Counted from the stretch's first letter, positions 9,995 through 21,660 are shown. The stretch: 32,000 bases of DNA from Erysipelotrichaceae bacterium (GCA_963676105.1 OY781039.1:1800001-1832000), one strand, 5' to 3'. Numbers and translations: made by a program. Notes: generated from the letters alone by a model not told the origin.

Positions 9995-11233
9995 TTAATT
10001 ACTATACTTCCAATTCATTAGTTCGATTTTTTCTTTATAGTAGATTATTGCAAGCTTGTACTTACTTCGATTTTCGTAGTAAGTAATTAGTCGATCTAGA
10101 ACAAATTCATAGTTTTCAAAATTTCTACTGTCTTTAGTCATTGAATGAAGTTGAAGGAGTTTCGATTCAATATCAACTTCATCGTGAAAATACTCATTAT
10201 GCACAATTTCCATTTCAAGTTTGTACATTGGATCATTAAAAGTTGATATTGAATTTTGATAGATTTGATTGGCTTCTTTGGTTTGATTTAAATGATATAA
10301 ACTAGAACACTTAATAAAAATTCCATTTTCAGATAGTGTTTGTTGAAGCTCTATTTGTTTTAAATAATCTAATGAGTCTTTATACTCTTTATTTAAAAAT
10401 GAAAACCATGCAAGATTGTAGAGAATAACATATTTGGTGTCTGCATCGTTTGTTGTATTAAGGATTTGTTTATACATTTTTTGTGATGTTCTAAAATGAC
10501 CTAATATTGCGTTAATTGATGCGATATGTACTTGCGTATTTGTGAGTCGTTTTAGATTACGCGTCTTTAGAAAATAATTCTCTGCGATTTCACTCAAGGA
10601 TAAGGCTTTATTTAGTTTCCCATAATACGTATAAATAAGTGATGCATGATAATGAATTAAACCCGCATTACTTTCTATAATGTCGTACTGAAGAGCTATG
10701 TCTATGGTATTGGCTGCTTCTTGAATCTGATTGTTTTTAAGATGTTCAATTGCTTTGTAGTCGTAGTAGAGTTGTTTGAGTTTGTTTTCAAAACAATAGA
10801 TATTATTTAAGACATAATCATAGGCTGTTGAATCATTATAAAGACCTAGTACATAAAGAACATAAAAGACAGTATTGAATTTGTTTAACATATTGGAGTA
10901 ATGGATATATTGAGTAGGAATTCGTATTTTATTAATTAATCTTTCAATTTCTTGATTATTATCATAAACGATGGCTTCCAATAAATTGTTTATATCGTCA
11001 TCCAATTTGTTTTCAATATAGAAAACAGATTCTAAATTAATATCTAATGCTGATGCGATCATTTTTAGATTTTCTTGATTTAAATCTCTCAAACCGATCT
11101 CATATTTAGATAAACTTTGATAACTATAATTCGTTAATTCTGACAAGTCTCTAAGGGTAAGATTTTTATGTTTTCGAGAATCAGAAAGAAGTTTTAAGAT
11201 ATCAATATTTTGAAATAATATTTTGTCGCCCAT
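9995..11233 (-). CDS. XRE-family HTH + TPR-like repeat transcriptional regulator (RRNPP-like architecture)
   Basis: The N-terminal segment 'LTLRDLSELTNYSYQSLSKYEIGLRDLNQENLKMIASALDINLESVFY' is an XRE HTH. The remaining ~330 aa is helical-repeat sequence rich in Y, N and L. 412 aa. Confidence 0.75.
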   Translation of the reverse strand: MGDKILFQNIDILKLLSDSRKHKNLTLRDLSELTNYSYQSLSKYEIGLRDLNQENLKMIASALDINLESVFYIENKLDDDINNLLEAIVYDNNQEIERLINKIRIPTQYIHYSNMLNKFNTVFYVLYVLGLYNDSTAYDYVLNNIYCFENKLKQLYYDYKAIEHLKNNQIQEAANTIDIALQYDIIESNAGLIHYHASLIYTYYGKLNKALSLSEIAENYFLKTRNLKRLTNTQVHIASINAILGHFRTSQKMYKQILNTTNDADTKYVILYNLAWFSFLNKEYKDSLDYLKQIELQQTLSENGIFIKCSSLYHLNQTKEANQIYQNSISTFNDPMYKLEMEIVHNEYFHDEVDIESKLLQLHSMTKDSRNFENYEFVLDRLITYYENRSKYKLAIIYYKEKIELMNWKYSN

Positions 11234-11338
11234 AATTTATTTAATTATACAACTCAATTTCAAAATTTACCGATATTTGTAGACAAGATTTGTTAGAAAA
11301 TTATTTATAATTGAATTATGGGAAAGGTGGGTGGATAA

Positions 11339-11398
11339 ATGATCGTATTCTATTGTTGTGTTATTGATTTATTTGATACGGTATTGCCTAAGTTTTAA
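11339..11398 (+). CDS. 19-codon hydrophobic mini-ORF (MIVFYCCVIDLFDTVLPKF); candidate signalling pro-peptide
   Basis: It is below the ORF-track length cutoff and was found by reading the sequence. SD-like GGAAAGGTGGG at 11321-11331, with ATG 8 nt after it. It is divergent from the HTH-TPR regulator. There is no conservation or expression evidence. Confidence 0.3.
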   Translation: MIVFYCCVIDLFDTVLPKF

Positions 11399-11401
11399 GA
11401 T
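11373..11401 (+). promoter_or_regulatory. putative promoter of the 11451-12727 operon
   Basis: TTGATA (11373-11378), 17 nt, TAAGAT (11396-11401). It lies inside the mini-ORF, ~50 nt upstream of ATG 11451. Confidence 0.4.
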
Positions 11402-11450
11402 TAACTAGTAGTAATTTAAATGCCATAAATATGACAAAGAAAGAGAGTTT

Positions 11451-12107
11451 ATGAAAATTCAAAAAATTTTATTTACTTTATTATTTTTTATTAGTTTAGC
11501 AAGTCCAGTAAGTGCGACTACCGAAGATAAAATTATTGGAGAAAAGTTAGTTACAAATATTGAAATTGATGGGATAAATTATATATATACGCAATATTCA
11601 ACTGAATTAAGTAATTTTACTTTAGTAGATAATGGCGAACAAGTTGATGTATATGAGTATAATTTTCAGACAAATAAACTAACAATGAATAATGCAGCGA
11701 TAGGAAACACAAGTTTTATTTCACCATACAGTAGAGCAGCATCTTGTTCAATACCACTTCTATCTGGATTAAAAGATGAACAAGGAAATTTAGCCGTATA
11801 TGAGGGTTGTGCAACATATACAATTAATGCTGGGGGACCAACAACTAGTGTTATCGCAAATTTAGTTGTTTTGACAATGATAGATGCAGGAATTATTAAG
11901 AATAAAATATTAATAAAACTAGGAACAGCTGCATTACCGACATATTTAAACTACAAAATATCAACAGCGCGTCAACAATATAGATCTAAATACACAATAC
12001 TAAATCCATACACAGGTTTATATAAATACAAACATCTATATAATTCATATTATTTCTGGGCTGATCAACCATGGTTTGGACCTAATAAATCAGTTTGGTG
12101 GTTTTGA
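11451..12107 (+). CDS. secreted protein of unknown function (Sec signal peptide)
   Basis: Signal peptide MKIQKILFTLLFFISLASPVSA|TTEDK. No enzymatic motif recognised. Amphipathic segment TTSVIANLVVLTMIDAGII. C-terminal tail rich in W, Y and F. Confidence 0.7.
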   Translation: MKIQKILFTLLFFISLASPVSATTEDKIIGEKLVTNIEIDGINYIYTQYSTELSNFTLVDNGEQVDVYEYNFQTNKLTMNNAAIGNTSFISPYSRAASCSIPLLSGLKDEQGNLAVYEGCATYTINAGGPTTSVIANLVVLTMIDAGIIKNKILIKLGTAALPTYLNYKISTARQQYRSKYTILNPYTGLYKYKHLYNSYYFWADQPWFGPNKSVWWF

Positions 12108-12358
12108 TGGGTAAGAACTATTGTCCAAATTGCAACACAAAAGTTCCACTTCTTAAACTATTTAAGAATCAGTTTTTTAAAGATTATCAATGTGAAAATT
12201 GCAATACATCATTAAGTCCAAAATTACATGTGCCATTTATTGTAATCATGACCATTTTTATTTCTAGCATTGATGATATCTATTTAAAATCTATATTAGT
12301 GATAATTTATTTTTTTAGTATAGAACCAATTACTGCATACTTAAGTGGATTTAAATGA
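12107..12358 (+). CDS. small CxxC-N19-CxxC zinc-ribbon membrane protein (cxxc_20_cxxc-like)
   Basis: ATG 12107 overlaps the upstream TGA (TGATG) and has a GGTGG SD. CPNC-19 aa-CENC is followed by two hydrophobic helices. The start is moved from the TTG at 12095. Confidence 0.6.
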   Translation: MGKNYCPNCNTKVPLLKLFKNQFFKDYQCENCNTSLSPKLHVPFIVIMTIFISSIDDIYLKSILVIIYFFSIEPITAYLSGFK

Positions 12359-12394
12359 AATTGAACAAAAACTTATTGGTCCAAGTAAATCAGC

Positions 12395-12727
12395 GTGGAC
12401 GTTCTAAAAAGTATCTATGAAAAAATACAATGCCCAAATTGTAAACATGATTTATCCTTAAAACAGAAATCATTGTTGATTTATCAAAAAATGGGTAAAA
12501 ACCATTGTGTTAAGTGTGATCATTGTCATAGTGCTCTGAGTTTTAAGGGCAACAATCAAATTTTACCTCTTATGTTCTTGTTTACGAGTTATGTTTTATA
12601 TTATCTCAAAGATAAAATTCTATTGTTTGTCATAATTGTTATATTCTTGTTTATATTAAAGGATACAGTTGCATTGTATCGTAACGGATTATATGTTTGT
12701 GTTACAGAGGAAAAAACAACTAAATAA
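12395..12727 (+). CDS. small CxxC-N21-CxxC zinc-ribbon membrane protein; tandem paralogue-like partner of the previous gene
   Basis: CPNC-21 aa-CVKC(DHC) is followed by two hydrophobic helices. The only in-frame start is GTG 12395, which has no clear SD, so the start is uncertain. Confidence 0.5.
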   Translation: MDVLKSIYEKIQCPNCKHDLSLKQKSLLIYQKMGKNHCVKCDHCHSALSFKGNNQILPLMFLFTSYVLYYLKDKILLFVIIVIFLFILKDTVALYRNGLYVCVTEEKTTK

Positions 12728-12781
12728 AGCCTACACAAAATTCAATATAAAAGTGGTGCTCATTTGAAATGAACCCTGAAT

Positions 12782-12818
12782 AGTAGATATTATATAAAAA
12801 GGTATCTACTTTTTATTT
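12782..12818 (+). terminator. intrinsic terminator of the 11451-12727 operon
   Basis: AGTAGATA (12782-12789) pairs with TATCTACT (12803-12810), followed by TTTTATTT. The 13-nt loop is long for a terminator. Confidence 0.5.
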
Positions 12819-12912
12819 GTGATTATTCATGATAAAAATCTCACTAGATATAACTTTTAAGGAAACTTAATTGTCCATAAAGTTGTAGAATAAAGTTAAT
12901 GAGGAAGTCAGT

Positions 12913-13890
12913 ATGAGTTCACAAAAATCAGTCAAAATTTTAGAGGTCATGAAGCTCTTGTTAGAAAAGAGTGATGATGAACACCCTTTAAGTGTGCAAG
13001 ATATTATTTCTGAACTGTCTAAACTAGGGATTGAGAGTGAACGTAAAAGCATCTATCAATATATGGATCAGTTAGAAGACTATGGTTTAGATATTATTAA
13101 AACCAAGAAGATTGCGAACTATTACCATGTGGGTGAGCGTGATTTTCAATTGGCAGAATTAAAACTCTTGGTTGATGCAGTTCAATTCTCGAAGTTTATT
13201 ACAAGGGAAAAGAGTATTGAACTGATTGAAAAGATTAAAGGTTTAACGTCTGTTTATCAAGCAGATAAACTTATACGTAACGATTATATTTCTGATCGTC
13301 TAAAGACAAGCAATACATCCATATACTTTAATGTTGATGCGATACATGAAGCGATAGTAAATAAACGATGGTTACAATTCAAATACTTTGAATATGGATT
13401 AGATAAAGAAAGACACTATCGCCGTAATGGTGAGTTCTATACTATGATTCCAGAATTTTTGTGTTGGGATGATGAAAAATATTATTGTGTGATGTATCAT
13501 GAAGCACATGATGATCACGTCATTTTCAGAGTTGATAAAATGCGTGAAGTTTCAGTTATGCATAAATCACATCATCATCAAAGATCACAAGCAGATTTTG
13601 AGAAATACTGCACTCGTATCTTTAGTATGTTTCAAGGTGAAGAAAAACGTGTTCAGCTTGAATTTGATAAATCATTAACATCGGTTGTTTTTGACCGATT
13701 TGGTTTAGATGTAGAAATAAAGGAAGAAAAAGAAAATAGTTTTGTGATTGAAGAATCCGTTATGGTTTCGCAAACTTTCTTTTCATGGTTATTTCAATTT
13801 GGAAGTTCAGCTAAAATATTAGGACCACAAGAAGTCAAAGATGCAGCACTAGATTTGCTTAGAAAGAATTGGGAGAATTATGAATCCTAA
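12913..13890 (+). CDS. WYL-domain transcriptional regulator (N-terminal HTH, WYL, C-terminal extension)
   Basis: GAGGAA SD 6 nt upstream. N-terminal HTH 'ILEVMKLLLEKSDDEHPLSVQDIISELSKLGIESERKSIYQYMDQLEDYGLDI'. WYL-like core 'WLQFKYFEYG...FYTMIPEFLCWDDEKYYCVMY'. Confidence 0.8.
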   Translation: MSSQKSVKILEVMKLLLEKSDDEHPLSVQDIISELSKLGIESERKSIYQYMDQLEDYGLDIIKTKKIANYYHVGERDFQLAELKLLVDAVQFSKFITREKSIELIEKIKGLTSVYQADKLIRNDYISDRLKTSNTSIYFNVDAIHEAIVNKRWLQFKYFEYGLDKERHYRRNGEFYTMIPEFLCWDDEKYYCVMYHEAHDDHVIFRVDKMREVSVMHKSHHHQRSQADFEKYCTRIFSMFQGEEKRVQLEFDKSLTSVVFDRFGLDVEIKEEKENSFVIEESVMVSQTFFSWLFQFGSSAKILGPQEVKDAALDLLRKNWENYES

Positions 13891-14761
13891 ACAAAATCGA
13901 CAACTAGCGATTCAATACCATATCCTTCGTCGTTTGATTCAAGATGATTCAAAACTTCATGCGAAGATTAATAAGGAAAATATTGCTGAACTATTAGATG
14001 CGAAGAAATTCTATGATAAATATTTTGAACCACAACATAATGCGGCTCAATTACCAATGCTTTTTAAACTCGTTCAAAGAGAAACTGAAGCAGCTTTTAA
14101 ACGAATATCGAATAAAGTTCATATCATCCATAAATATGATGAACGTTATCCTAAATGTATTCTTCAAGATTTTAGAGAAGATGCCCCTATGTTTCTTTAT
14201 TTGAGTGGTGGGGTAGATGTTTTAGATCGAAAATATAAAAAAATCTCATTGTTTACCAATTCTAAGAGTAGTGATGAGTATATAGAAGAAACGTTAAAAT
14301 TACTGAAACAATTAAAAGATTCATCCTATGTTGTACTAATCCAATTTAATACACTTATGGATAATCTTATTTTCCTAGAATGTCAAAAACAAGGTATTCC
14401 ATGCATTGTTGTATTTAGAGGTCCTGTTACTAAAGATCTTGAGAATGCAGTAAAGAAATATAACCCCCGATTTAAACGTGGATCAAAGGGTATGAATATA
14501 ATGAGTATCACTGGTCCTTTTAATGAGGTTTTAAATGAGAAAACACAATCTCATTTAATGAATTCAATGGGGCGCGTTAGTGTTTTATTTTCAGATGCGT
14601 TAAATGATGTGAATCATGAAGCTATTAAGAATAACTTGTACTGGCGTAAGCCTTCGCTTATGCCACTATTAAATGGGTCACAGTACCCCTCATCAGAATT
14701 GTTGTTTACACTTGAAAAAAAGGAAGATTTTAAGATAACCATTGACCAATTAAGTGCGTAA
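13880..14761 (+). CDS. divergent DprA/Smf-like (SLOG-fold) protein with degenerate core motifs
   Basis: 11-nt overlap with the WYL gene. A by-eye alignment to DprA holds: 'YDERYPKCILQDFREDAPMFLYLSGGVDVLD' matches the DprA 'D..YP..L..I.D.P..L...G'. The canonical 'VGSR' and 'SG.A.GID..AH' positions read 'LFTNSK' and 'IQFNTLMDNLIFLE'. Confidence 0.55.
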   Translation: MNPKQNRQLAIQYHILRRLIQDDSKLHAKINKENIAELLDAKKFYDKYFEPQHNAAQLPMLFKLVQRETEAAFKRISNKVHIIHKYDERYPKCILQDFREDAPMFLYLSGGVDVLDRKYKKISLFTNSKSSDEYIEETLKLLKQLKDSSYVVLIQFNTLMDNLIFLECQKQGIPCIVVFRGPVTKDLENAVKKYNPRFKRGSKGMNIMSITGPFNEVLNEKTQSHLMNSMGRVSVLFSDALNDVNHEAIKNNLYWRKPSLMPLLNGSQYPSSELLFTLEKKEDFKITIDQLSA

Positions 14762-14844: not shown

Positions 14845-14880
14845 TTAATGGTGTGTTAATAAAAACAAGAAAGGATGCAT

Positions 14881-17382
14881 ATGAAAAAAATACTTATTGT
14901 TGGTGGTGTTGCCGGTGGTGCTACAGTTGCTGCTCGTTTACGCCGTCTCAGTGAAGAAGATCAAATCATTATGTTCGAACGCGATGAATTCATTTCATTC
15001 GCAAACTGTGGTCTTCCTTACTACATCGGTAATGTGATTACCGAACGTGATAATCTACTCGTTCAAACAGTAGAAGGAATGTCACAGCGTTTTAATTTGG
15101 ATATTAGAAACTTCTCAGAGGTTGTTGATATCGACAGAGAAAAGAAAGTTGTCACTGTTAAGAAAACTCAAACAGGTGTGACTTATGAGGAGTCTTATGA
15201 CAAACTCATTCTTTCACCAGGTGCAAAACCTATTCAACCTCCAATTGAAGGTTTGAAGGAAGCTACAAACTTATTTGTTCTACGTAATATTCCAGATACA
15301 GATCGTATCTATAACTATATTGCAGAAAACAAACCAAAAACAGCAGCTGTTATCGGTGGTGGATTCATCGGTGTTGAAATGGCTGAGAACCTTAAAGATC
15401 GTGGTTTAGCAGTAACGTTAGTTGAAAAACTACCACAAGTTATGGCTCCAATCGATTTCGAAATGGCTCAACTTGTTCACGAAGAACTTAATGCTAATGG
15501 TGTAAAATTAGAACTCGGTGATGGTTTAGCTAAATTCACTCAAGAAGGTCGTAAGATTCACTTAGAATCCGGTAAAGTTGTTGATGCGGATATCGTTATC
15601 TTCTCAATCGGTGTTGCCCCAGAAAACGCTTTAGCTAAAGCTGGAAAATTGGGTATTGGTCCTCGTGGTCATATCATGATAAATGAAAGAATGGAAACAT
15701 TCGAAGAAGATGGCAAAACAATCGCAAAAGATGTTTATGCATTAGGTGATGCGGTACAAGTTAAAGACTTTGTTACAGGTCATGACACAGCCATCGCGCT
15801 TGCTTGGCCAGCAAACCGTCAAGCACGTCTACTTGGTGATATCATCAATGGTGATAAAGAAGCTAAATACAATGGTTCAATGGGAACATCTGTTCTTAAA
15901 GTATTTAACTTAACTGTTAGTGCTACAGGTAATAACGAACGTTCTTTAAAAATGAAGAATATTCCTTATGTCGCAATTCATGCTCACCGTGGTAACCATG
16001 CTGGTTACTATCCTGGTGCATCAAACATTGCGCTAAAGTTAATGTATAATCCTGAAACATTAGAAATTTTAGGTGCACAAGCTGTTGGTCAAGAAGGTAC
16101 TGAAAAACGTATTGACGTTATCGCAACTGCGATTAAAGGTAAACTTAAAGTTACTGAATTATCTGACTTAGAACTCGCTTATGCACCTCCATATTCATCT
16201 GCAAAAGATCCAGTTAACGTACTAGGTTATATTGCTGAAAACTTAGTAGATGGATACTATACAATGGTTCATTCTTCAGATATTGAAGAAATGACTAAAG
16301 AAGGTATGACATTCTTAGATGTACGTACACCTCTAGAATTTAGTACAGGACACGTTGCCGGTGCGATCAATATGGAAGTTGATCACTTACGTGATACTGT
16401 TTCTAAATTAAATGTTGCGAAAGATGCGCCTATCACAGTTATCTGTGGTGTTGGTTTAAGAGCTCACGTCGCTACAATGATTTTACGTAACTTAGGTTAT
16501 ACAAATCTTCATAACATGTCAGGTGGTATGAAGACATACAATTCACGTCACTATATTATGAACAGTGCATGTCCTAGCGAAATGCATCACATCGACCATA
16601 TCGAAGTGACTGATACTGGGGATGTAGTCGAAAAAAAGCCTAGCGGGTTAGATGGCAACCCATCAAAAGTCATCGATGCTTCAGGTCTTCAATGTCCTGG
16701 ACCACTTCTCGCAACTTATAAAGCTGTGGGTGAATTAAAAGATGGTGAAAAAGTCCAAATTATTTCCACTGATCCTGGTTATGCGAAAGATGTTGAAAGT
16801 TGGTGTAGTACCAATGGTCATACACTTGTTAGCCTAAACAGAGAAGGCGGAAAAGTTGTTGCGGATATTGTTAAAGGTCAAAGAGCTAAGGTTGATGGAT
16901 CTACTGTTAACCAAGAAAATGCGACCATCGTTCTCTTCTCTGGAGAATTAGATAAAGCATTAGCTTCAATGATCATTGCCCAAGGTGCTGCTGCACAAGG
17001 CAAAAATGTCACAATCTTCTTCACATTCTGGGGCTTGAATGCATTACGTAAGAGTAATCATGTTCCAGTTAAGAAAACACTTATTGAAAAAATGTTTGGT
17101 ATGATGATGCCTCGTGGCGCTAAAAAATTACCACTATCTAACATGAATATGCTAGGTATGGGTAAAGCCATGATTGAAGGTGTTATGGATAACAAACAAG
17201 TTGATTCATTACCAGTTATGATGAAGTCTGCTCAAGAACTCGGTGTTAAATTCATCGCATGTAATATGTCTATGGATTTAATGGGTATTCAAGAAGCTGA
17301 ACTCATCGATGGTGTTGAACTCGGTGGTGTTGCGACTTATATTTCTGCTAACGAAAACGTTGGTACAACATTATTCATCTAA
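14881..17382 (+). CDS. CoA-disulfide/persulfide reductase fused to rhodanese, TusA-like and DsrE-like domains
   Basis: Start taken at ATG 14881, 5 nt after the AAAGGA SD; the ATG at 14875 overlaps the SD. Motifs: GGVAGGATVAARL (FAD), SFANCGLPYY (redox Cys), GGGFIGVE (NAD), rhodanese CGVGLRAH, TusA LQCPGPLL. The C-terminal DsrE-like block includes ACNMS. Confidence 0.85.
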   Translation: MKKILIVGGVAGGATVAARLRRLSEEDQIIMFERDEFISFANCGLPYYIGNVITERDNLLVQTVEGMSQRFNLDIRNFSEVVDIDREKKVVTVKKTQTGVTYEESYDKLILSPGAKPIQPPIEGLKEATNLFVLRNIPDTDRIYNYIAENKPKTAAVIGGGFIGVEMAENLKDRGLAVTLVEKLPQVMAPIDFEMAQLVHEELNANGVKLELGDGLAKFTQEGRKIHLESGKVVDADIVIFSIGVAPENALAKAGKLGIGPRGHIMINERMETFEEDGKTIAKDVYALGDAVQVKDFVTGHDTAIALAWPANRQARLLGDIINGDKEAKYNGSMGTSVLKVFNLTVSATGNNERSLKMKNIPYVAIHAHRGNHAGYYPGASNIALKLMYNPETLEILGAQAVGQEGTEKRIDVIATAIKGKLKVTELSDLELAYAPPYSSAKDPVNVLGYIAENLVDGYYTMVHSSDIEEMTKEGMTFLDVRTPLEFSTGHVAGAINMEVDHLRDTVSKLNVAKDAPITVICGVGLRAHVATMILRNLGYTNLHNMSGGMKTYNSRHYIMNSACPSEMHHIDHIEVTDTGDVVEKKPSGLDGNPSKVIDASGLQCPGPLLATYKAVGELKDGEKVQIISTDPGYAKDVESWCSTNGHTLVSLNREGGKVVADIVKGQRAKVDGSTVNQENATIVLFSGELDKALASMIIAQGAAAQGKNVTIFFTFWGLNALRKSNHVPVKKTLIEKMFGMMMPRGAKKLPLSNMNMLGMGKAMIEGVMDNKQVDSLPVMMKSAQELGVKFIACNMSMDLMGIQEAELIDGVELGGVATYISANENVGTTLFI

Positions 17383-21586: not shown

Positions 21587-21660
21587 GCCGACATAGTTCA
21601 ACGGTAAAATAGAGCAATGGTAATGCTCAGTTCCGAGTTCGATTCTCGGTGTCGGCACCA
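21587..21660 (+). tRNA. tRNA-Thr (anticodon GGU), CCA-encoded
   Basis: Manual cloverleaf. Acceptor GCCGACA/TGTCGGC. D arm is GTTC..AAAT (weak). Anticodon stem GAGCA/TGCTC with loop ATGGTAA. T arm CCGAG-TTCGATT-CTCGG. Discriminator A, then CCA. 74 nt. Confidence 0.8.

Follow-up and report, generated by a model that had tools for sequence, protein, structure and literature searches.

Introduction

RRNPP systems are defined by a tetratricopeptide-repeat (TPR) receptor of 250-500 amino acids (aa) encoded beside a pro-peptide of 10-100 aa, and in all members except Rap the receptor carries a helix-turn-helix (HTH) domain at its N-terminus (PMC10075063). Export of the pro-peptide by the Sec pathway is the rule, the stated exception being the export of short hydrophobic peptides (SHP) and PrgQ by PptAB, which is tied to receptors of the Rgg and PrgX type (PMC10075063). 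Leaderless communication peptides (LCPs), which comprise 8-10 aa and are used unprocessed, are paired with receptors of the RopB/Rgg clan (PMC10518010). According to a survey of RRNPPA systems, NprR is found mainly in Bacillales, forms a sister group to Rap and is built of an HTH domain, a three-helix bundle and nine TPRs (PMC9765709). Here, we describe a block at positions 9995-12818 of a 32,000-nucleotide stretch of an Erysipelotrichaceae genome (GCA_963676105.1, OY781039.1:1800001-1832000; the whole stretch is hereafter called the window), which probably constitutes an RRNPP-type peptide-gated transcriptional switch with a replaceable cargo cassette. As such, it very probably represents a cell-to-cell peptide signalling switch of the known RRNPP kind. 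Computation reveals the fold and family of the receptor, a conserved peptide open reading frame (ORF), a conserved promoter architecture and a homology breakpoint that goes along with diversity of the cargo.

Among the described systems, the closest solved relative by profile and fold is NprR-NprX of the Bacillus cereus group. Both receptors belong to the same size class and combine an HTH domain with long helical repeats, the Tyr and Asn residues contacting the peptide backbone are kept, and the signal is, for NprX and probably also for the present locus, the C-terminal part of a small peptide with a conserved Asp. The two receptors differ in that they share only 16-17% identity, that the KRD motif with its Arg126 is absent here, and that the present receptor stems from Erysipelotrichaceae rather than Bacillales. 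Moreover, nprX is a Sec-dependent pro-peptide gene located downstream of and co-directional with nprR, whereas the peptide gene described here is divergent in all clades and, in the clade of the window, encodes a leaderless peptide of 19 aa.

With regard to gene layout, the locus resembles Rgg-SHP and ComR-ComS: a short gene for a hydrophobic peptide of about 20 aa without Sec leader is oriented divergently to the regulator gene, the targets lie downstream, and the putative active part of the peptide occupies its C-terminus, starting close to an acidic residue. In SHP systems the targets are located on the same transcript directly downstream, and the regulator box overlaps the -35 region. Unlike Rgg and ComR, the receptor shows no Rgg family match and has no Rgg, ComR or PrgX among its best 50 fold matches; in addition, the peptide does not possess the basic N-terminus of the SHPs, and typical Rgg proteins are about 125 aa shorter than the 412-aa receptor. 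The RopB-LCP pair likewise combines a leaderless hydrophobic peptide with a divergently encoded RRNPP receptor, the co-directional adjacent target often being a secreted factor (PMC10518010); it differs from the present locus, where the peptide has 19 aa, only its C-terminal third is conserved and the receptor is NprR-like. The locus is hence Rgg/SHP-like in layout and NprR-like in its receptor, and its family contains both Sec-type-looking and leaderless pro-peptides with one mature code. In the searched library, no literature link between RRNPP systems and Erysipelotrichaceae was found. The main interest lies in the apparent switch of export type within one family and in the organisation into platform and cassette, both of which are deduced computationally.

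Results and Discussion

Receptor of the NprR/Rap branch

The receptor gene (9995-11233, minus strand) encodes a protein of 412 aa with an XRE-type HTH at about aa 10-72, a helical linker and TPR-like repeats. An earlier note, made by a model from this DNA, had described an XRE-type HTH followed by helical repeats, and both parts are borne out: Pfam HTH_3 matches residues 20-68 (E 3.9e-10), and an AlphaFold model, for which 18 family sequences were used, is all-helical with 24 helices (predicted local distance difference test score, pLDDT, 91.4; predicted template modelling score, pTM, 0.85). The note had further interpreted the protein as an RRNPP receptor, and a structural match for the C-terminal region is indeed found. 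Hereby, the family profile matches the NprR chains 5dbk and 4gpk (E 1.2e-14) over residues 73-412, i.e. the whole non-HTH part, and Foldseek against the PDB returns NprR first, both with and without NprX (E 1.5e-7, template modelling (TM) score 0.56-0.72), followed by phage and Bacillus Rap, the probability of these NprR and Rap matches being 1.00. The alignment to NprR runs end to end at the low identity given above (16-17%), with a TM score of 0.53-0.74 depending on normalisation. Structures of PlcR, Rgg, ComR, PrgX and AimR are all missing from the best 50 Foldseek matches, and NCBIfam gives no Rgg/TIGR01716-type match. Thus, of the RRNPP likeness proposed earlier, the part that stands in sequence and fold is NprR/Rap-like, while the likeness to Rgg/SHP is confined to the gene layout.

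NprR grips its peptide via Tyr193/Asn194, Glu241, Ser274/Asn275 and Asn306/Asp309, and Asn275, which forms a hydrogen bond with the peptide backbone, is described as conserved in all RNPP proteins (PMC3763537). In the profile alignment, each of the NprR peptide contacts Y193, N275 and N306 has a family-invariant counterpart (Y195, N273 and N303, respectively), and S274-N275 of NprR pairs with Y272-N273 of the receptor family. The receptor thereby combines a length of 412 aa (the range for RRNPP(A) receptors being 250-500 aa) with a TPR-like domain, an N-terminal HTH and the conserved Asn. The KRD motif is strictly conserved in NprR, where Arg126 is essential and reads both the Asp of the peptide and its C-terminal carboxylate (PMC3763537). 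R126-D127 of NprR is an insertion in the profile alignment and has no counterpart in the receptor family, in which the KRD motif is thus lacking. Because of the profile and fold matches, the shared contact residues and the absent KRD motif, the receptor is an RRNPP protein of the NprR/Rap branch and not an NprR orthologue.

Conserved small ORF with a common C-terminal motif

The divergent intergenic region (11234-11450) spans 217 bp and harbours a 19-codon hydrophobic ORF behind a Shine-Dalgarno sequence, just as the earlier note had it. The ORF (plus strand) runs from ATG 11340 to TAA 11399, comprises 19 codons plus stop (MIVFYCCVIDLFDTVLPKF) and lies 106 nucleotides (nt) from the regulator start. 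Its ATG is placed 5 nt after GGAAAGGTGGGTGG, the Shine-Dalgarno region as read from the sequence (11321-11334, plus strand), which close relatives retain as AAAGGTGGGTGG, while distant relatives have GGGAGG or AAGGAG at this site. The 19-aa peptide is hydrophobic, with a grand average of hydropathy (GRAVY) of +1.58, and shows neither a Sec-like n-region nor a basic N-terminus.

A 19-codon ORF could occur by chance in AT-rich DNA; its conservation in other loci shows that more than chance is involved. To this end, the regulator-upstream DNA of every relative with enough flank was surveyed (loci are designated L001, L002 and so on). A divergent small ORF was found upstream of nearly every receptor relative, in about 21 loci representing all clades, and every one of these ORFs ends in [D/E]-x-x-x-P-[K/R]-[F/I/V] followed by the stop codon. 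This agrees with the presence of a small ORF at related loci that the earlier note would have its reading depend on, and together with the receptor match it supports the peptide-gated RRNPP switch proposed there. The motif is common to ORFs of 16, 21 and 35 aa beside receptors at 32-48% identity, and each receptor clade has one peptide type, the C-termini being DxVLPKF, ESVLPKI, DYKIPR[I/V], DFELPRI and D[W/F]V[H/Y]PKI. Receptors with 57-76% identity to that of the window (L001 with two copies, L002, L018, L019 and L023; L017 and L021 partial) are accompanied by ORFs of 19 codons, namely MIELYYLIIDLFDMVLPKF, MIELYYIIIDLFDMVLPKF, MDNLYQFIIDMFDLVLPKF, MIELYHLIIELFDMVLPKF, MTELYYLINNLFDMVLPKF and MNELYYFIINLLDMVLPKF. 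Each of the six full-length close relatives analysed has this length, as does L023, whose receptor is 57% identical. In the 39-48% clade (L010, L024, L030) the ORF has 21 codons and reads MGDLNLL[L/I]WL[I/M]SLFDYKIPR[I/V], whereas the small ORF beside the 42% receptor of L020 ends in IILESVLPKI. The receptor of L013 (about 33%) is accompanied by the 35-aa peptide MRKIILLVLLGLVFHSSFNISINPIIPNDFELPRI, and the 32-34% clade (L006, L011, L012, L025, L026, L027, L029) by 35-aa peptides of the form MKKLMVVTLLCLLSFGFVS..SPVVSP[L/M]D[W/F]V[H/Y]PKI. As judged by eye, the 35-aa forms of the distant clades look Sec-type, starting with MKK followed by a hydrophobic leader.

The pattern of nucleotide changes points to coding constraint. 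Between the six window-clade copies, the pairwise differences by codon position amount to 54/34/92 with zero indels, and codon 11 is represented by four synonymous Leu codons. The C-terminal motif is spelled with different codons in those clades that have lost alignability in the intergenic region. These data argue strongly that the mini-ORF encodes the signal, as far as can be read from sequence. One could instead assume that the mini-ORF is a translated leader or simply conserved regulatory DNA, and that the receptor has no ligand or a different one such as a fragment of the cargo signal peptide; the enterococcal sex pheromones, which are signal-peptide fragments, would be the model for this. 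Such an assumption would fit the overlap of the ORF with the promoter-like match TTGATA-N17-TAAGAT, the approximately 80% conservation of the flanking non-coding DNA among close relatives, the conservation of the cargo signal peptide across unrelated cargo proteins and the lack of an export signal in the peptide. However, it leaves unaccounted for that the same C-terminal motif, differently encoded, recurs where the intergenic DNA cannot be aligned, that changes fall mostly on third positions without indels, that the motif also ends a 35-aa peptide with a classical leader, which neither an attenuation leader nor a promoter would need, and that the distant clade keeps the small ORF although it is devoid of any cargo protein with a signal peptide. 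We thus regard a mini-ORF that is not the signal as very improbable.

By analogy with NprX7, PapR7 and the C-terminal peptides of SHPs, the mature signal is probably the C-terminal heptamer DTVLPKF or a slightly longer peptide. Only the C-terminal third of the 19-aa peptide is conserved, which implies processing. Alternatively, the peptide might act only inside the cell that makes it and never be exported, so that the locus would be an autoregulatory bistable switch rather than a means of cell-to-cell communication. While the 19-aa form indeed lacks a Sec leader as well as a basic N-terminus and the neighbouring genes include no transporter, the pro-peptides of relatives that share its mature motif look Sec-type-led, and thus the ancestral signal was likely extracellular. 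Furthermore, export and re-import are known for the leaderless RRNPP peptides SHP, ComS and LCP (PMC10075063, PMC10518010). Taken together, a purely intracellular peptide appears improbable, and we favour a signal that is exchanged between cells. Only tentatively, and with more doubt than for the switch as such, do we propose that within one receptor family a pro-peptide of 35 aa with the look of a Sec substrate has given way to a leaderless form of 16-21 aa with the same mature code, in combination with a fixed platform behind which unrelated effector/immunity cassettes are exchanged through recombination in the signal-peptide sequence. If true, leaderless short peptides would not be limited to receptors of the Rgg, ComR and PrgX type, and an RRNPP signal would have switched its export route in an NprR/Rap-like rather than an Rgg/PrgX-like receptor. 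Hereby, the 35-, 21- and 19-aa forms provide a natural series for asking how peptides exit the cell.

Promoter architecture

Upstream of the mini-ORF lies a conserved box (11276-11288, plus strand; TTTGTAGACAAGA) with the core TAGACAAGA at 11280-11288, which overlaps the -35 region of the peptide promoter. The -10 hexamer TATAAT of the promoter for peptide and cargo (11306-11311, plus strand) has a fixed position relative to the box in all loci. In every receptor clade, T[A/C]GACAA[G/A]A is found exactly 17 nt upstream of a TATAAT-like -10 element that precedes the small ORF, and box and spacing are kept even between receptors of 32% identity. The box is slightly degenerate in L020, L013 and L032, invariant in an alignment of four loci (A1), and occurs only once in the 32-kb window. 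It is a candidate binding site of the regulator; a mutated version of the core, TAGTGTTGA, was designed. The TAGACA part of the box constitutes a good -35 hexamer, yet its spacing of 20 nt is non-functional, which would suit a promoter of the kind that requires an activator bound at the -35 region. On the opposite strand, TGTATAAT (11244-11251, minus strand), likewise invariant in alignment A1, is the probable extended -10 element of the regulator's own promoter. By folding, no terminator or stable RNA hairpin was found between the peptide ORF and the cargo gene, and hence both genes most likely form a single transcript.

A different promoter, at 11373-11401 and thus inside the mini-ORF, had been put forward earlier as the site to be fused to a reporter. 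This proposal needs correcting: the match, TTGATA-N17-TAAGAT, agrees with the consensus at only 9 of 12 positions, and such matches are no commoner than in shuffled sequences. In L002, the synonymous change TTT to TTC in the mini-ORF abolishes the internal -35 element while the amino acid is kept. The internal site may thus be a secondary promoter at most. The conserved promoter is instead TAGACAAGA-N17-TATAAT at 11280-11311, and box and -10 element at these positions are the correct anchor for a reporter fusion. A generic scan for promoters and terminators was uninformative in this AT-rich DNA, yielding 19 promoter-like sites versus 23 expected, and missed the low-GC terminator of the operon.

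Just upstream of the ribosome-binding site of the cargo gene, an imperfect palindrome, TGCCATAAATATGACA, is located (11421-11436, plus strand). It is present in the window as well as in L001, L017, L018 and L019 regardless of the cargo, reads TGTCAT-N4-ATGACA in L001, L017 and L019, and shows no stable RNA fold in the window. It may represent a second operator or an mRNA element.

As a separate observation, the 32-34% clade possesses a conserved spacer of about 190 nt between the genes for the 35-aa pro-peptide and an 84-aa CxxC protein (L006, L011, L012, L025, L026, L029; alignment A5). The spacer (L006 4340-4730, minus strand) contains a hairpin whose stem varies in sequence yet stays paired and whose loop reads CCCCCC, without any Rfam match. 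In L006 the CxxC gene is lost and the spacer is retained. The element may be a regulatory RNA or a small RNA.

Exchangeable cargo cassettes

The peptide gene is followed by a gene for a secreted protein of 218 aa (11451-12107, plus strand) and two genes for small CxxC membrane proteins (12107-12358 and 12395-12727, plus strand). The identity of close relatives to the window is 60-90% from the regulator 5' end across intergenic region and mini-ORF up to about codon 25 of the cargo gene, thus including the signal peptide. It then drops to background at about 11530 in five loci with other cargo, whereas it amounts to 57-88% in the L001 copy with the same cargo. Cargo families differ even between loci whose regulators are about 75% identical. 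Behind the breakpoint, at least nine unrelated secreted proteins are found, two of which carry papain-like domains of cell-wall hydrolases or peptidases. Downstream of each secreted protein, a specific small partner is encoded that is hydrophobic or membrane-anchored.

The family of the window, with a cargo of 218-227 aa and one or more CxxC partners, also occurs in L001, L013, L016 and L017. The second type, again in L001, comprises 360 aa with an Amidase_6 domain (E 3.7e-13) and a weak CHAP match (E 1.6e-3), its partner having 88 aa, and the 246-aa cargo of L020 is Peptidase_C39_2-like (E 1.1e-4, just under the cut-off) with a partner of 205 aa. PDB sequence searches with the Amidase_6 and the C39-like proteins returned nothing. 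The remaining cargo proteins have 255 aa in L002 (partner 58 aa), 187 aa in L018 (partners 73 and 87 aa), 167 aa in L019 (partner 86 aa), 173 aa in L023 (partner 146 aa), 305 aa in L013 (partner 66 aa) and 229 aa in L017 (partner 111 aa).

Partners also occur apart from their cargo. L018 carries a copy of the amidase partner (61% identical) in the absence of any amidase, in the 32-34% clade the peptide gene is followed solely by the gene of an 84-aa CxxC membrane protein, a 218-aa protein being absent, and in the window one secreted protein is accompanied by two CxxC proteins, which represent the two subtypes. L001 (2717-7239, corresponding to OY760660.1, an Erysipelotrichaceae metagenome-assembled genome) contains two tandem modules. 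The first consists of a full regulator, the peptide gene, the Amidase_6 gene and the 88-aa gene; in the second, a regulator truncated to about 56 codons is followed by an intact peptide gene, a homologue of the 218-aa gene and a CxxC gene. The second module looks like a displaced cassette left by recombination in the regulator 5' region.

Conserved leaders with variable mature parts, cognate as well as orphan partners and displaced cassettes are together typical of effector/immunity loci. In streptococcal blp/bacteriocin-immunity regions and in CbpD/ComM, peptide quorum sensing drives secreted antibacterials together with small membrane immunity proteins, and blp-type regions display a conserved leader before variable mature parts, recombination-shuffled cassettes and orphan immunity genes. 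The present loci share the layout of a secreted protein with a cognate small membrane protein that varies between strains and leaves orphan partners. They differ from blp and CbpD-ComM in their Sec-type-looking leaders (versus double-glycine leaders), in effectors of 170-360 aa and mostly unknown fold, and in that control would be exerted by a cytoplasmic RRNPP receptor encoded in the cassette platform; moreover, they are known from genes alone. Since the cassette pattern resembles known effector/immunity loci, the cargo pairs may be quorum-controlled secreted effectors with their immunity proteins, which, by this analogy, we consider their likeliest role, with roughly even odds. The earlier note had found no motif by which to assign the output to a characterised regulon. 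For the 218-aa protein this is still correct, as it has no assignable domain, whereas the output as a whole turns out to be one of many interchangeable secreted/membrane pairs. This interchangeability points to effector/immunity cassettes and thereby bears on the bacteriocin-like reading that had been set aside.

It is also conceivable that the switch is real and its cargo not a weapon, but serves wall remodelling or autolysis, roles at the surface or in adhesion, or nutrient release, the membrane proteins being anchors, chaperones or receptors. In line with this, the 218-aa protein and most other cargo contain no toxin domain, enzymes of the Amidase_6/CHAP and C39-like types act in the turnover of the own cell wall too, and the CxxC protein, as the sole conserved output in the distant clade, could have a function of its own. 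NprR itself governs degradative exoenzymes (PMC3763537). Yet wholesale replacement between strains with 75%-identical regulators is not expected of housekeeping functions, each cargo retains its own specific partner, and partners are found as orphans and extra copies, as with the two CxxC genes for one secreted protein in the window. Orphan and extra partners are the usual pattern for effector/immunity pairs. We therefore consider a non-weapon cargo rather unlikely, albeit less so than the two alternatives discussed for the peptide. Under the effector/immunity reading, anything behind the conserved signal-peptide sequence is a candidate secreted protein with its partner, probably for competition between related strains.

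Cargo proteins of the window

All elements of the three-gene operon listed in the earlier note, i.e. the signal peptide, the two CxxC proteins, the TGATG junction and the terminator, are present where the note had placed them. The leader of the 218-aa protein is hydrophobic and ends in VSA|TT, so that the signal peptide is encoded at 11451-11522 and the mature part from about 11523. The DNA encoding the signal peptide is conserved among relatives (TTTTTYATTAGTTTRGCWAGTCC). An exhaustive HMMER search among 1.84 billion representative proteins retrieved only 13 relatives of the 218-aa protein, which contain no Pfam domain save a chance repeat match in one of them (P0033).

The start of the 83-aa protein (ATG 12107) overlaps the stop of the 218-aa gene in TGATG at 12105-12109. 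Both small proteins contain a zinc-ribbon-like CxxC-N20-CxxC motif followed by C-terminal hydrophobic segments, two in case of the 83-aa protein. The latter belongs to a subtype ending in GFK and can be aligned to the L013 partners as well as to the 84-aa proteins found in L025 and L026, the 84-aa protein of L029 being near-identical to these. The second CxxC protein belongs to a subtype ending in RNGLY and can be aligned to the partners that accompany the 218-aa family in L001, L016 and L017. Scores against TIGR04104 (cxxc_20_cxxc putative zinc-finger proteins) are 19.9 bits (E 7e-4) for the 83-aa and 25.1 bits (E 1.7e-5) for the 110-aa protein, both below the curated cut-off of 45. The CxxC-N20-CxxC motif with a hydrophobic tail agrees with the pattern of that family, and the CxxC proteins are thus at best its distant relatives; the searched literature contains no mention of TIGR04104.

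It is uncertain where the second CxxC gene begins, with 110 aa being encoded if GTG 12395 is the start. Its N-terminus reads MDVLKSIYEKIQ in the window, whereas relatives begin with MKKIQCP. There is no in-frame ATG; the ATG at 12417, with A6 behind it, misses the frame by one base, and MKKIQCP would need A7. Either GTG 12395 is used, or the assembly contains an error in homopolymer length. The operon ends with an intrinsic terminator (12782-12818, plus strand), in which a hairpin at about 12782-12810 is followed by UUUUUAUUU. Its 10-bp stem has a folding energy of -10.5 kcal/mol (z = -2.4), and 2 of 200 shuffled sequences fold equally well.

The locus L013 (CAYZTV010000009.1, 1-10684) contains a 227-aa homologue of the secreted protein of the window and its CxxC partner adjoining an IS1595 transposase, with no regulator beside them. 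At a distance of 2 kb, a complete second module is located, consisting of a 408-aa receptor, the 35-aa pro-peptide ending in DFELPRI and the 305-aa and 66-aa genes. A histidine kinase of the GHKL type (HATPase_c_5), followed by three polytopic membrane proteins, is encoded nearby.

Proposed mechanism

For the mode of action we infer export, processing, re-import and binding of the peptide, activation rather than repression of the promoter, and a toxin/immunity function of the cargo. A cytoplasmic 412-aa NprR-like receptor (HTH plus TPR) would be encoded divergently from the promoter TAGACAAGA-17 nt-TATAAT, from which the 19-codon pro-peptide gene, the gene of the 218-aa secreted protein and those of the two small zinc-ribbon membrane proteins would be expressed as a single transcript. 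The leaderless hydrophobic peptide would be exported, with a PptAB/Eep-like route as for SHP peptides as our best guess, cut to the C-terminal heptamer or so (DTVLPKF) and taken back up. Inside the cell, the mature peptide would dock on the concave face of the TPR domain, and the liganded receptor, sitting on the conserved box that overlaps the mis-spaced -35 element, would activate the promoter. Hereby, the peptide would be subject to positive feedback, and the cargo would be expressed in a density-dependent manner. A fixed platform for expression and secretion would be made up of regulator, promoter, peptide gene and signal peptide. Recombination within this conserved stretch, which extends from the regulator 5' end to the signal peptide, could swap the mature secreted protein along with its cognate membrane partner, and such swaps would leave behind displaced cassettes and orphan immunity genes.

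Several observations weigh against this scheme. In the receptor family, the missing counterpart of the NprR residues R126-D127, and with it of Arg126, leaves the reading of the peptide Asp and the C-terminal carboxylate unexplained. Exporter, protease and Opp genes are all lacking within the window, and with neither a Sec leader nor an SHP-like basic N-terminus, export of the window peptide is unexplained. The small ORF has been lost in two lineages (L003-L005 and L032), and its C-terminal codons overlap a weak promoter-like match in the window, so that conservation at this position could partly be regulatory. The 218-aa protein matches nothing in Pfam, NCBIfam and PADLOC and nothing credible in a PDB profile search, its AlphaFold model is unusable (pLDDT 48.8), and the effector/immunity reading draws on analogy and on the cargo families of neighbouring loci. 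Finally, many of the compared loci derive from uncultured genomes that are closely related to each other, and these loci are not fully independent.

Family distribution and genomic context

By single-sequence or profile search, the receptor family comprises only 19 clusters among 5.8 billion proteins. Hereby, the profile-based search of this database yielded one extra full-length member (P0037), while P0038 matches the HTH region only. None of the members is named in any source checked. Matches among species-representative genomes come from three Erysipelotrichaceae and one further member of the Bacillota, all of them metagenome-assembled genomes. The family is a new, rare and unnamed RRNPP subfamily and not a new kind of system. 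It is unlikely to surprise a specialist much, given the many candidate RRNPP systems already known from large computational screens. If confirmed, it would add a new peptide communication code and a new receptor subfamily in Erysipelotrichaceae, which are known here only from uncultured metagenome-assembled genomes.

The block is more AT-rich than its surroundings, as the earlier note had estimated, with a GC content of 0.27-0.29 across 10001-13000 and of 0.33-0.39 in both flanks. A mobile or viral origin was considered and rejected: receptor relatives are absent from viral contigs, and no integrase or transposase was seen inside the block. A defence-system reading was rejected as well, the PADLOC match to the regulator being due solely to its generic HTH. 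Rfam gave no match anywhere in the block.

Directly behind the block, a WYL-domain regulator is encoded (12913-13890; Pfam WYL 9e-8 and WCX 8e-6, PADLOC WYL 2.5e-21), and the end of its gene overlaps the start of a gene for a 293-aa DprA-like protein (13880-14761; Pfam DNA_processg_A 3.8e-4, PADLOC ShosA 1.2e-5 and PsyrA 6e-5). The two genes may form a small defence or toxin-antitoxin-like pair. The GC content of this stretch (window 12913-14761) is also low (0.30-0.32).

The chromosomal neighbours are otherwise ordinary and comprise a T-box/trp operon, a PAS protein, an M20 peptidase, a CoA-disulfide-reductase fusion and two-component systems. At 812-1066 of the window, the trp operon is preceded by a T-box leader (96.7 bits), and a tRNA gene is located at 21587-21657, both being ordinary chromosomal features. 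The fusion protein (window 14875-17382, 835 aa) joins a pyridine-nucleotide disulfide oxidoreductase with rhodanese, TusA and DsrE-like domains; it is a sulfur-handling enzyme of the CoA-disulfide-reductase type and is not related to the peptide module.

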